This document shows positions 5,307-59,720 of a DNA stretch of 64,000 nt, in pieces. The notes below the pieces were generated by a model. That model did no database searches. It was not told where the DNA came from and worked only from the letters and a program-made list of their open reading frames with translations. Within the stretch, counting starts at the first letter, position 1; each line of letters starts with the position of its first letter. This DNA is from Octopus vulgaris (taxonomy: Eukaryota). Where the stretch lies: contig OX597818.1 in the NCBI GenBank assembly GCA_951406725.2, positions 49,662,001-49,726,000 of the forward strand, in the 5' to 3' direction. The translations under genes and the position numbers were made by a program.

Positions 5307-5935
5307 ATAATAATGAAATTACTTTATACAGTGCCCAGGTGCACCACAACTTGTCAAAAGTGCATATAAAGCATATGCAGTAATGTACAAATGTCTGGAA
5401 AGTAAACAGTGTATGAGTCAGATACATGCTTGCGTGTGTATGGAGGGGAGAAAATCAGGTGTAGTGTTGGTGAATCTCAGGAAGCATGGAAGTTTTGAAG
5501 GATGCAGTGCTCCGACAACTAACAACTGATGCCGGCAGTTTGTTCCATACTTCAGCAACTCTTAGTGTGAAAAAATGTTTTCTGAAAGTCGTGGGAGCTG
5601 TGCTGTTTTCTGACTTTGTAAACATGTCCACAGGTGTTAGACGGGTGGAGTTTGAAAAGGTGCTCAGAGTTATTGTTTGTAAGATGGTTAATAATTTTAT
5701 GGGTGTCTGCCAAGTCAGCTGCCAGACATCGGAGTTTCAATGTGTCCATGCCCAGGGAGGTAAGGCGTTCAGAATATGGCAAATGCCTGATGGAGGGTAT
5801 TCTCTTGGTTGCACGTCGCTGAACGACTTCCAGACGATTAATATCCTGGGCAAAATAGGGGTTCCAGACCGGTGATGCAAATTCCAGGTGAGGCTGCACC
5901 ATTGCTATATAAAGCCACAGATAGATAGCCGGAGT
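5307..5935 (-). mobile_element. CR1-like LINE 3' end (RT C-terminus + 3' UTR)
   Basis: PHLEFASPVWNPY..DINRLEVVQRRATKRIP..LPYSERL and WNKLPASVV are typical CR1-group C-terminal motifs. Confidence 0.85.
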
Positions 5936-7668: not shown

Positions 7669-8380
7669 CAATTGTTAGTGACAGAAGCAAGATTAATACC
7701 ACCTTGACCTTTGACATGAATGTCTTGTTAGAACATCAAATACTGCATCATTAGCCTTGAGAGATCCTCTCGTATAGGTGCTTGATGCACAAACACACAC
7801 AAATAGATCATACCAGGCAATAATCATTTGTCGTGGGCACCAGGATTCCCATATCACATGATTTCATTCTACTGGAACTCATCAGTGGGGGGCATCCAGC
7901 TACCACATGCCAGTCAGATTTTGCTGCTATGATACAAAGAATATCAGCATCTTTCCAGACGCTGATGTCACAAATAGCCGGCAGGCTTATTAGAAATTAA
8001 TTATCAGCAATGAAACCACTATTAATACCAAAAGGTCACGTTCATATCCAGCTTAACATGAATGTCTTGCTAGAACACCAGATGACCGGGATCCAATTGG
8101 AGGGAAGCAAGAAAGGCCGGCTGTAAAATTTATGAGTATGGTCCCTCCATTTGCATCTAAGTAATAAAACAAGAGTTGAGAGTAGAAAGAGAACTGTATC
8201 AGAACAACTGTTAAGAACATTTTTTAATTACATTATTTACATTCAACGGATATTTGTCCTCTTCCTGTTTGTTGTTAACACAATGTTTCGGCTGATATAC
8301 TCTCCAGCCTTCTTCGGGTGTCTTGGGGAAATTTTGAACCTGGGTTCTCATTCCTAAGGTATTTTTCGATGTTGTTGTTG

Positions 8381-8429
<49 letters not shown>

Positions 8430-8520
8430 TATTGTTATTGTTCAGGTCACTGCTTGGAGTCGAACTCGGAATCTTGGGGTTAGTAGCCTGCACTCTTAAC
8501 CACTACGCCATATCCCCACA

Positions 8521-8591
8521 GCATATGGCGTAGTGGTTAAGAGCGCTGGCTACTAACCCCAAGATTCTGAGTTCGATCCCAGGTAGCGACC
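8521..8591 (+). ncRNA. tRNA-like SINE head (anticodon loop CT-ACT-AA), mirrored at 8445-8514
   Basis: A box TGGCGTAGTGG, B box GAGTTCGATCC; no good acceptor stem, so a SINE head rather than a functional tRNA. Confidence 0.7.
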
Positions 8592-8609
8592 TGAATAATA
8601 ATAATGATG

Positions 8610-8655
<46 letters not shown>

Positions 8656-8730
8656 TATTATAATGATAATAACAGCAACAACATCGAAAAATACCTGAGG
8701 AATGAGAACCCAAGTTGAAAATTTCCCCAA

Positions 8731-8776
8731 GACACCCGAAGAAGGCTGGAGGATATATCAGCAGAAACATTGTGTT
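8731..8776 (+). ncRNA. Degenerate minimal type-I hammerhead motif (mirror copy 8277-8322)
   Basis: gacac-CCGAAGA-a-ggctg...cagc(c/a)-GAAAC-ATT-gtgtt; stems I and II present, core U4 replaced by C. Confidence 0.55.
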
Positions 8777-9845
8777 AACAACAAACAAGATGAGGACAAA
8801 TATCCATCAAATGTAAATAATGTAAATAATGTACATAATTCCTCATCTCTTAAATTTAGAACTGAACTGTTAAGAAGTCATTCCAAATGACACCACTGAC
8901 ACCCTATAACCTCCTCATCCTCTCCTTCCTTCCTTCCTTCCTCTCCTTCCTTCCTTCATTCATTCCTCACTAAATGCCCAACTATTAACATTTTAAATCC
9001 CAATATCTATTCTTCTTTACTAAATGCCCAACTATCAACATTTTATATCCAAGTATGATTACACCGAATGAGAATTTTCCTATTCTATAAACAGTGGAAG
9101 TAGCTTGCAGTCTCAGTTCCTTTATAATGCATATCTTTACCTGTTCTATGCAAACTATACAGACTTTCCCATAACATGAGCATCAATACAACATGAATAT
9201 CTATCTACAATGCATTACATTTCTGTCAATACAGACTCACCACAAACTCCTGCACAACTACGCAATAGTCTTCAGATCCAACATTTCCAAGGTAATAACA
9301 AGAATTATCAATGAATTTGTCCCAAACCATCTTGAATCTCAGCATGCAATAATAGAAGTCTTCAAAGCAGTATCTCCTATTCAACTTTCAACCCTGCTAT
9401 TTCATGATATTTCCAAGGCTAAAAACACCCACACCACTTTACTTTACCAATAATCAATACAACCCCTCTAAGGTTTATGACAATCGGTTCACCTATAAAG
9501 GAGAAAATGTTTTATATTTCATGAAAAAAAAAGCATATCGTCTCTGTCTTTCATGACCAGCTTCCATATGGATATCAACAGCAATAGTTTAAAACAGAAA
9601 TTCTATCTTACTTTCTAAATAAGAAACCTTTGTTGTTTATTTTGCTGGAAACTAAATATATTGAGTGAAAAGTCCTGTTCTTGTTGTCGTCTCTGTCCAC
9701 AATGCTACTTGGGTTTCAGTATACCCCAGTTACTCAGCGACCCCTTGACCCTGTATAAATTTCTGTTGCATAATATAATTTGTAGCTACATATACACAGA
9801 TGATGTGTTGGAACAGCTGTAGTCTATTGAAGTGAATGTACACTT

Positions 9846-10031
9846 TTTTTATTTGTTTCAGCCATTTGACTGTGGCCATGCTGGAGCGCCACCTTTAGTC
9901 GAGCAAATCGACCCCAGGACTTATTCTTTGTAAGCCTAGTACTTATTCTATCGGTCTCTTTTGCGAGGATGTAAACACACCAGCATCGGTTGTCAAGCAA
10001 TCTTGGGGGGACAAACACAGACACACAAACG

Positions 10032-10075
<44 letters not shown>

Positions 10076-10260
10076 CACACACAAACACATATATACGACA
10101 GGCTTCTTTCAGTTTCCGTCTACCAAATCCACTCACAAGGCTTTGGTCGGCCCAAGGCTATAGTAGAAGACACTTGCCCGAGGTGTCACGCAATGGGACT
10201 GAACCCAGAACCATGTGGTTCGTAAGCAAGCTACTTACCACACAGCCACTCCTACGCCTA
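9846..10260 (-). mobile_element. SINE family A
   Basis: Reverse complement of the 2566-3100 element. Confidence 0.9.
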
Positions 10261-10487
10261 TTGTAGTAAATATTTCCTGCAAATCAATGGTGGGTTAAAA
10301 TTCAATGTTGAAGCTAAGTGGTAGGATTTGAACTCAGTCATTAATTAACAAAAATTTATTACTGCTCAGTGCATTACCATCTGTGCTACCCTTACAGACC
10401 TGATAATAATATCACAATAAATTGTATTAAGATAATAGTGATAAAAGTGGTTTCAAATATTGGCATGAGGCCAGTTATTTTAGTGAG

Positions 10488-13708: not shown

Positions 13709-14054
13709 AGATAATTGTATCAAGAAACTACTAATTCTCAAAAAAAGGAGTCCTCAGTGAAGAAAATCATAAACCAGCAAAGTTAGCCATAAATCTTAAC
13801 AAAAGATAATTAATGAAAGACGAGGGACCAATGCTGAATAAAGAGCTAAGATTCCTCACAACAGTTCAAAGAGACTCCCTATACATATGAACCTCAAACA
13901 AAGTGCCAGCAAAAGTACTTTAAAAAGTTAGTAGTGAATGAATTAGATGGAAAGCTTGAAATACATTGAAGAACCCAAAGTCTCCTATGTCAAAAATCTT
14001 TAAAAATGGAACAATACCATCAACAGAATGACAAGCATCATTTTTGTAAGAGTT

Positions 14055-14290
14055 GTGTATATATATATGTGTGTGTGTATATGTTTGTGTGTATGTATTT
14101 GTTCCCCCAACATCGCTTGACAACCGATGCTGGTGTGTTTACATCCCCGTAACTTAGCAGTTCGGCAAAAGAGATTGATAGAATAAGTACTAGGCTTACA
14201 AAGAATAAGTCCTGGGGTCGATTTGCTTGACTAAAGGTGGTGCTCCAGCATGGCTGCAGTCACTTGACTGAAACAAGTAAAAGAGTGAAA
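14055..14290 (+). mobile_element. SINE family A 3' half
   Basis: Runs from the microsatellite to the gtaaaagag tail. Confidence 0.85.
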
Positions 14291-21152: not shown

Positions 21153-21640
21153 TGTATATATACATATATGTATATATTTATATATACATATATTTATATA
21201 TACATATATTTATATATACATATATATATATCTATATCTATATATATATATAGTTAATCCAAACATGAAAACACAAAGAGAAAACACAACACGAGGATGT
21301 GGAACAAGTATAGTGTTATTGGACGCTCAGGAAAGGAAAGAAAGAAGGAGGATTTAACGTTTCAAGCGGAGCTCTTCATCAGAAACATAGGAAAAGGAAA
21401 GATCCAAGGAAGGGAAGACGGAGGAAAAAAAAAAATCGCCAACGTTACACATGTTGTCACATTTTATACATATATACAATGGGCTTCTTTCAGTTTCCGT
21501 CTACCAAATCCACTCACAAGGCTTTGGTTGACCCAAGGCTATAGTAGAAGACATTTGCCCGAGGTACCATGCAGTGGGACTGAACCCGGAACCATCTGGT
21601 TCGTAAGCAAGCTACTTACCACACAGCCACTCCTACGCCT
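20898..21640 (-). mobile_element. SINE family A containing a nested PLE-type repeat
   Basis: Both SINE halves are present; the insert 21251-21466 lies inside the TA tract. Confidence 0.85.
21353..21385 (-). ncRNA. Minimal type-I hammerhead motif in PLE-type repeat 21251-21466
   Basis: Minus strand ttt-CTGATGA-a-gagc-tcc-gctt-GAAAC-GTT-aaa; palindromic AACGTT stem III. Confidence 0.65.
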
Positions 21641-28784: not shown

Positions 28785-29205
28785 TAGGTGCAGGAGTGGC
28801 TGTGTGGTAAGTAGCTTGCTTACCAACCACATGGTTCCAGGTTCAATCCCTCTGTGTGGCACTTTGGGCAAGTGTCTTCTACTATAGCCTTGAGCCAACC
28901 AAAGCCTTGTGAGTGGATTTGGTAGACAGAAACTGAAAGAAGCCCGTCGTATATATGTATATATATATGTATATATATGTGTGTATGTGTTTGTGTGTCT
29001 GTGTTTGTCCCCCACCCCCAACATCACTTGACAACCAATGCTGCTGTGTTTATGTTCCCGTAACTTAGTGGTTCAGCCAAATAGACTGATAGAATAAGTA
29101 CTAGGCTTACAAAGAATAAGTCCTGGGGTCAATTTGCTCGACTAAAGGCTGTGCTCCAGCATGGCCACATTCAAATGACTGAAACAAGTAAAAGAGTAAA
29201 GAGAG
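28785..29205 (+). mobile_element. SINE family A
   Basis: Full-length copy. Confidence 0.9.
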
Positions 29206-59364: not shown

Positions 59365-59681
59365 TCCGCTCGAAACGTTAAATCTTCTTTCTTTCTTTCC
59401 TTTCCTGAGCGTCCAATGATACTATACTTGTTCCATGTCCTCGCGTTGTTGTGTTTTCTCTTTGTGTTTTCATGTTTAGATTAACATTCAATATGTGACC
59501 GCATATGTATCATCGGCGATTTTTTTTTCCTCCGTCTTTCCTTCCTTGGATCTTTCCTTTTCCGCTTGAAACGTTAAATCCTCCTTCTTTCTTTCTTTTC
59601 CTGAGCGTCCAATAACACTATACTTGTTCCACGTCCTCGCATTGTTGTGTTTTCTCTTTGTGTTTTCATGTTTGGATTAAC
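59365..59681 (+). mobile_element. Partial tandem of the PLE-type repeat seen at 21251
   Basis: Two head-to-tail units ending (t/g)gattaac, flanked by (TA)n. Confidence 0.8.
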
Positions 59682-59720
59682 TATATATATATATATAAGT
59701 ATATATATATACACATATAT

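Follow-up and report, generated by a model that had tools for sequence, protein, structure and literature searches.

A head-to-head retroelement insertion in Octopus vulgaris, probably combining a tRNA-derived promoter with the terminal region of a Penelope-like element

Introduction

The insertions of Penelope-like elements (PLEs) carry a characteristic signature, namely an optional 30-40-bp tail at one of the ends, a 5' copy in inverted orientation and a target-site duplication (TSD) of 8-10 bp (PMC8557442 and PMC3846280, both available in part, as are all sources marked "part" below). In vitro, the tail corresponds to the distance between two internal start sites of reverse transcription (RT); the two strands of the target are both nicked and extended by the PLE protein, which favours AT-rich DNA and can dispense with cleavage by the hammerhead (PMC11167929). 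The minimal hammerhead ribozymes of PLEs have an extra base after A9, a G10.1-C11.1 pair and a palindromic 15.2-16.2 segment, and they act as dimers (PMC4209133, part). The origin of the inverted and tailed insertions is still unresolved (PMC8557442, part; PMC11167929).

The unit described here occupies positions 8206-8876 of the window, the whole 64-kb stretch of Octopus vulgaris DNA that was analysed. It resembles the endonuclease-bearing (EN+) PLEs of the Penelope/Poseidon kind in a terminal region that contains a type I hammerhead of the minimal form and in a 30-40-bp optional tail at one end, and likewise in its head-to-head inverted copy, a TSD of about 8-12 bp and an AT-rich target (PMC3846280, part; PMC8557442, part; PMC11167929). 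Unlike them it has no ORF: a head with tRNA-type A and B boxes and an (AAT)n linker replace the RT-EN ORF and promoter, and both arms reach the 5' end.

Elements that unite a Pol III promoter with a hammerhead in a SINE-like form are already in print, as are non-autonomous elements derived from PLEs. The former are represented by Sm-alpha and Sj-alpha of Schistosoma, where, as in our unit, a tRNA-related Pol III promoter is followed by a type I hammerhead at very high copy number (PMC6765202, PMC2770079, PMC8490949; part). These are, however, described as tandem repeats that cleavage releases and whose hammerhead is canonical and active; the available portions of these sources name no PLE partner. 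The order of promoter and hammerhead is the same, but our element is dispersed and not tandem, its hammerhead is minimal and internal, and it shows PLE-specific ends and inversion. The latter are represented by the animal non-LTR retrozymes (PMC7229834; bioRxiv 10.64898/2026.07.22.740005; part), argued to be non-autonomous PLE derivatives (bioRxiv 10.64898/2026.07.22.740005, part), and by MRC1, a non-autonomous Chlamys element (PMC8557442, part). Both are, like the unit, non-autonomous and related to the PLE pseudo-LTR (pLTR), with PLE enzymes proposed to act in trans. Retrozymes form head-to-tail tandems, with a hammerhead in each unit, that make circRNA, whereas the unit is inverted and tandems occur in its sister pLTR family only; a Pol III or tRNA head is not described for retrozymes or MRC1 in the available text.

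The tRNA SINEs, including OK, OR1 and OR2 of octopus (PMC4758252, PMC4824008; part), share with the unit an A/B-box head, a length of 100-700 nt and a cis-acting end borrowed from an autonomous partner; their partner is a LINE, whereas the cis-end of the unit is a PLE pLTR. OR1 and OR2 are cited there as CORE-SINEs, and compared by description only, the head of the unit instead runs straight into (AAT)n. TRIMp3 also has a Pol III head, but its partner is an LTR element (PMC10886601, part). No description of a tRNA-headed, PLE-tailed SINE was found in the literature searched; Repbase, Dfam and most subscription papers lay outside that search, so the family may already have an entry that labels it as a SINE or as Penelope. 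The interest lies in the family, most probably a Pol III-headed passenger of PLEs, and not in the single palindrome.

Organisation of the inverted unit

The unit consists of two arms placed head to head, both of which have the layout that was originally predicted: a tRNA-like head, (AAT)n and a hammerhead-shaped tail, reading outward. The original prediction described a near-perfect fold-back of about 650 bp around a 9-nt loop. The fold-back and the loop (8514-8522, with a self-complementary 4-mer on either side) were borne out, but the arms are about 90% and not nearly perfectly complementary (91% for 8224-8396 with 8657-8829, and 89% for 8384-8513 with 8523-8652), and the ends are asymmetric: 8834-8864 is present on the right arm only and 8218-8229 on the left side only. 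The arms differ at 20 of the 219 positions compared (9/74 in the head, 11/145 in the tail) and also in the length of the linker. The whole unit is predicted to fold into a hairpin of about 300 bp (-417 kcal/mol, z -45 against 20 shuffles). No further copy of head or tail was detected in the 64-kb window outside the unit.

The 12-bp direct repeat that had been reported around the whole unit is exact, its copies lying at 8206-8217 and 8865-8876 (both on the + strand), and a 12-mer repeated near both ends was met in 0.145% of 20,000 random 650-nt spans of the same window. The right copy of this TSD starts one base past the main 3' end of the family described below. Between the left copy and the short 3' end of the left arm stands an A/T-rich filler of 12 nt (8218-8229). 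With indels of 2 nt permitted, the TSD is possibly several nucleotides longer at either of its ends, and the left flank (8192-8219) holds a degenerate tandem copy, 13-14 nt long, of the TSD motif.

tRNA-derived heads and AAT linkers

The left head extends over 8440-8517 (- strand; A box 8500-8510, B box 8457-8465) and the right head over 8519-8593 (+ strand; A box 8526-8536, B box 8571-8579). Since tRNA position 1 falls at about 8517 and 8519, respectively, both arms are essentially full-length at their 5' end. The heads are followed by an (AAT)n/(AAC)n linker at 8370-8442 (- strand) in the left arm and an (AAT)n linker at 8594-8679 (+ strand) in the right arm. A search pattern for an A box and a B box with tRNA spacing is found twice in the 64 kb, once per arm, and in none of 100 Markov-simulated windows. 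The motif of the 3' half of the head matched 28 viral contigs, in 21 of which ARAGORN calls a tRNA at that place (12 Arg and 5 Met). When 19 of these 21 tRNAs were aligned to the heads, two with odd long calls being left out, the alignments were nearly gap-free with at most 50 identities in 74 positions; the 5' 43 nt of the head, which lie outside the search motif, aligned better than shuffles (p<0.05) in 31 of the 38 comparisons. The boxes and the nearly gap-free alignment support the tRNA-type head of the original prediction.

The same prediction had recommended an Rfam scan for the hammerhead; at E<=10 it gave neither a hammerhead nor a tRNA match in the unit, only sub-threshold hairpin matches. 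ARAGORN called no tRNA there and the heads show no cloverleaf fold (z 0.1-0.2). Missed tRNA calls and the lack of a cloverleaf are as expected of a decayed SINE head. The sense strand of either arm is free of a T4 run, which is not significant (P 0.59). Searches for translated copies of the head yielded 665 candidates, none of them significant, and a second such search yielded none.

Measured against the definition of a SINE, the element has a tRNA-derived 5' head with A and B boxes, is about 340 nt long, non-coding and interspersed, and is high-copy as judged by its tail. A 3' tail shared with a LINE, or a poly(A) or tandem-repeat terminus, is not seen: the element ends at two fixed 3' sites, a judgement made from the ends and not by comparison with a LINE library.

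Tail and hammerhead

The pLTR-type tails lie at 8230-8376 (- strand) in the left arm and at 8680-8833 (+ strand) in the right arm, where an extension of 31 nt (8834-8864, + strand) follows, corresponding to the optional tail of PLEs. Aligned to the right arm, the left tail stops without extension at the short 3' end of the family. Both tails contain a minimal type I hammerhead. In the left arm (8277-8322, - strand) the 5-bp helix I and helix II are intact, position 4 carries U4C and the helix III palindrome is broken; in the right arm (8731-8776, + strand; predicted cut after 8771) the family majority restores U4 (8737), the closing pair of helix II (8763) and the ACGU palindrome (8769). Helices I (5 bp) and II of the hammerhead form the minimum-energy fold of both arms (z -2.8 left, -1.3 right).

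The depth-weighted majority of the family has T at 8737 (95-99%), G at 8769 (73-85%), C at 8763 (72-86%) and T at 8740 (55-66%). Its core is CUGANGA/GAAACGU with an extra base after A9, a G10.1-C11.1 pair and a palindromic helix III (15.2-16.2), in agreement with the minimal hammerheads of PLEs (PMC4209133, part). A family consensus without CUGANGA/GAAA had been named as grounds for abandoning the prediction; it was checked, and the majority has both. The non-canonical core bases noticed originally are indeed shared by both arms, but they are minority letters and not the state of the family. Since the majority is canonical, the odd bases are specific to the copy at 8206-8876, where they are decay or subfamily letters. 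The hammerhead of this copy is degenerate, inherited pLTR baggage, of which the insertion was probably independent.

Some further features of the tail are recorded here. An ATG-initiated frame at 8702-8863 (+ strand) stays open for 54 codons through hammerhead and tail, as happens in 0.7% of shuffles; as the start of a PLE ORF it was rejected, having no long relative and matching only gene calls on copies of the repeat. A second ATG at about 8829 opens another frame across the tail, possibly a relic of the start of the partner's ORF. A 9-bp helix (8788-8796 with 8840-8848) joins the body and the optional tail and is a candidate stem-loop for the start of RT; the fold as a whole is not significant (z -1.05).

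A high-copy family with two 3' ends

The region 8655-9400 was aligned against four sequencing runs, X4 (organism A), X8 (organism D), X10 (organism E) and X15 (presumed RNA), and 27,633, 15,275, 27,585 and 3,059 contigs, respectively, could be aligned. In X4 the summed depth, which is not a copy number, reaches millions over the tail against 51 on the unique flank, where a single main contig provides the coverage. It is clear that in three organisms the tail is a repeat of high copy number. Its best translated match is a UniRef gene call of Octopus bimaculoides, which settles the host group. The exact patterns of the family were absent from metagenome contigs, viral contigs and GTDB; nine and two bacterial GTDB pattern matches were treated as chance.

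Position 8864, one base before the right TSD copy, gives the strongest loose-end signal in each of the four runs (336 contigs in X4, 239 in X8, 273 in X10, 17 in X15), and the flanks beyond this position are diverse and AT-rich. A second cluster of 3' ends lies at 8824-8833, 31-40 nt before 8864, with the loose-end signal at 8824 and 8830 being due in part to a 9-nt duplication in the right arm, and it is within this short cluster that the left arm stops. Both 3' ends recur among translated copies, where about 22 matches are of the family type by a crude sorting on motifs, five of them long. The original prediction would have fallen with a tail matching the 3' end of a LINE or the terminal inverted repeat (TIR) of a DNA transposon; in its behaviour the 3' end resembles the pLTR of a PLE, with two fixed ends that are separated by 31-40 nt, and not a LINE tail or a TIR. 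Among the best-supported loose ends listed, none marks a dominant 5' end at the hammerhead cut (8772).

Upstream of the tail the family contigs run into AAT repeats. The best-supported loose ends at 8671-8680 are rich in AAT or AAC in X4, X8 and X15, and one weak loose-end consensus in X8 reaches the motif at the end of the head. These AAT-rich ends and the one X8 consensus weakly link head and tail beyond 8206-8876. We consider it probable that the unit arose by a single insertion of a non-autonomous retroelement that Octopus carries at high copy number and that is built of a tRNA-derived Pol III promoter, (AAT)n and the pLTR end of an endonuclease-bearing PLE.

The most serious alternative, though an unlikely one, is that the abundant family consists of solo or truncated pLTRs (a non-autonomous PLE or a retrozyme-like monomer), and that the head belongs to a separate tRNA SINE or pseudogene whose (AAT)n tail once received a pLTR. 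On this view the composite moved only rarely, for instance as a read-through passenger, and Pol III had no sustained part. The read alignment covered the tail only and depth is higher at its 3' end, the PLE endonuclease has a preference for ATT sites (PMC11167929), pLTRs suffice for the trans-mobilisation of unrelated passenger DNA (PMC3846280, part), the sister pLTR family has a different upstream region and the searches with the head were empty, all of which suits this alternative. Nevertheless, a 5' junction within a few nucleotides of tRNA position 1 would be rare by random read-through truncation, and the AAT/AAC-rich loose ends of X4, X8 and X15, one of them reaching the head-end motif, also speak for the composite as the mobile element.

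In each of the four runs, summed contig depth rises 2-4-fold from the 5' side of the hammerhead to its 3' side (8780-8854); this step may reflect a large number of copies without a head, the presence of related families or biased mapping caused by the mutations of the right arm. The sister pLTR family (proteins P0003-P0088), about 55% identical in translation, has two 3' ends and inverted junctions of its own, and it forms retrozyme-like head-to-tail tandems of about 42 codons. A contig of X15 covers the unique right flank (8987-9183, depth 5) and may derive from pre-mRNA or DNA.

Relation to Penelope-like elements

The features of a PLE derivative found here are the minimal type I hammerhead in the family majority, the optional tail at one end and the head-to-head inversion with a TSD. 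A hammerhead-type pattern detected 32 metagenome loci, and in 12 of these, from about four families, a PLE-type ORF on the same strand ends 105-306 nt upstream. Helix I, which is not part of the pattern, pairs in 10 of the 17 distinct metagenome motifs, against 1.9 with shuffled partners; a U at the cut site is found in PLE-linked loci as well. Pfam, run on 41 of the 66 ORFs of the metagenome loci, found GIY-YIG in four, one of them above the cut-off. The tail has no BLASTN match to the metagenome PLE loci and has the motif alone in common with them; thus the class of the motif is established, not the partner. An autonomous PLE with this pLTR did not come to light: the 87 phmmer matches include no long PLE protein, and a search of longer proteins gave none. 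The original proposal of a Pol III SINE mobilised by a PLE is supported as regards the tRNA-type head and the PLE-type tail, whereas the protein and metagenome searches brought up no autonomous partner.

One of the metagenome loci, L037, has an apparently intact PLE-type ORF of 824 codons (274-2745, - strand) with a C-terminal GIY-YIG below the cut-off. It gave no Pfam RVT_1 and no PDB match; by its motifs it is a putative RT. Another, L027, is a tandem of ORF, pLTR and ORF.

One insertion event

Compared with the family majority, the two arms share four letters (8718, 8737, 8740, 8769) and have six and five private letters in 145 nt. The product of the frequencies of the shared letters in X4 is about 0.001, provided that the letters are independent, an assumption that would fail in the case of a subfamily or of gene conversion from one arm to the other. 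As these minority letters are present in both arms, one source template is indicated, and the private letters fit a subsequent drift of about 4% per arm. As a rough inference on the calibration of PMC13282606 (part), this drift may have taken a time of the order of 10 million years. Insertion as one piece, as had been suggested, is supported by the single TSD around both arms and by the shared rare letters. An empty site did not come to light, the contigs of X8 and X10 leaving 8880-8979 uncovered.

Junctions at which an antisense copy is followed by a sense copy occur in 6 of the 89 proteins. Two are of the family type (P0008, P0079), and since they invert at other junction points, inversion recurs in the family. 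The palindrome is best read as a by-product of PLE insertion, ordinary behaviour for these elements. The notion of a designed unit with divergent promoters was consequently given up, the palindrome being a standard outcome of PLE insertion in the available parts of PMC3846280 and PMC8557442.

It is improbable that two copies of a LINE-mobilised tRNA SINE were inserted independently back to back, the direct repeat and the hammerhead shape being incidental. The distance between the arms (about 8-12%), the great abundance of the family and the degenerate 13-14-nt tandem copy of the TSD motif in the left flank are compatible with such a history; yet one TSD encloses both arms and none lies at the junction, the frequency product of the shared rare letters is low if the arms were independent, and a canonical majority hammerhead together with two fixed 3' ends lacking poly(A) or a tandem-repeat terminus is PLE-like. 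A foldback or MITE-type DNA transposon with the arms as long TIRs is still less credible: long inverted arms with a TSD would suit it, but the 31-nt extension makes the ends asymmetric where symmetric TIRs are expected, the family has 3' ends at two sites with diverse AT-rich flanks, and the inversion points vary (P0008). Finally, an assembly or long-read fold-back artefact, which would accord with there being no centre-crossing contig among the evidence, can practically be dismissed given the differences between the arms in sequence and linker length, the TSD, the seven runs (of 20 sharing part of the region) that hold at least half of the sampled words, and an X4 contig running from 8837 into the right flank, with 28 letters on the element side, below the 31-letter bridging rule.

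Proposed mechanism and significance

Returning to the PLE-derived retroelement, we propose that Pol III would transcribe an RNA of about 340 nt, comprising head, linker and pLTR, from the head, and that a RT/GIY-YIG protein of a PLE, supplied in trans, would bind the pLTR part of this RNA. The protein would place nicks 12 bp apart in the two strands of an AT-rich target, and RT would have an internal start at either of two sites separated by 31-40 nt. If both nicks are primed, with the long start used for the right arm and the short start for the left, the two cDNAs could join at their heads. Alternatively, one cDNA might fold back and prime itself at the junction 4-mer, giving the same product; fold-back self-priming has been proposed for PLE inversions (PMC3846280, part). 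The family itself probably arose by insertion of a pLTR into the (AAT)n tract behind a tRNA-derived sequence. The promoters would diverge merely as a consequence of the inversion, and a long dsRNA would be made only on putative read-through.

A short high-copy passenger with a defined putative Pol III start and the two 3' ends of a PLE makes the question of PLE insertion testable from genome data: double priming predicts pairs of a long and a short arm with both ends at the nicks, whereas fold-back predicts palindromic microhomology at the junction. If the proposed reading is true, the partner classes of SINEs would extend to PLEs, which are not usually listed as SINE drivers, a place could be found for some of the 893 families that O. 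vulgaris has under the heading "unclassified SINE" (PMC13282606, part), and Sm-alpha would be open to re-reading as PLE-dependent.

We advance more tentatively, rating it at somewhat below an even chance, a broader proposal: that there is a third class of Pol III-driven non-autonomous retroelement, a PLE-driven tRNA SINE with thousands of copies or more across Octopus species, in which double-ended priming from the two RT start sites of the PLE is routine. Were this the case, it would complete the set of LINE with SINE, LTR element with TRIMp3 and PLE with tRNA SINE, provide a minimal natural substrate of 340 nt, document PLE integration junctions in vivo on a very large scale, and mean that octopus genomes are seeded with ready-made dsRNA hairpins of 300 bp.

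Other repeats in the window

A second, unrelated family of the PLE pLTR type is present in the window at 21241-21470 (- strand) and 59365-59693 (+ strand), with a canonical minimal hammerhead at 21351-21382 (- strand) and a (TA)n end; one copy lies inside the dominant SINE and two more form a partial tandem. ORF remnants near 5552, 52152 and 58602 resemble, by their motifs, an RT, a helicase and a mariner-type transposase. A different repeat of about 450 nt with a (TA)n/(CA)n middle has many copies on both strands, for example at 9842-10262, 14042-14289 and 28785-29200.
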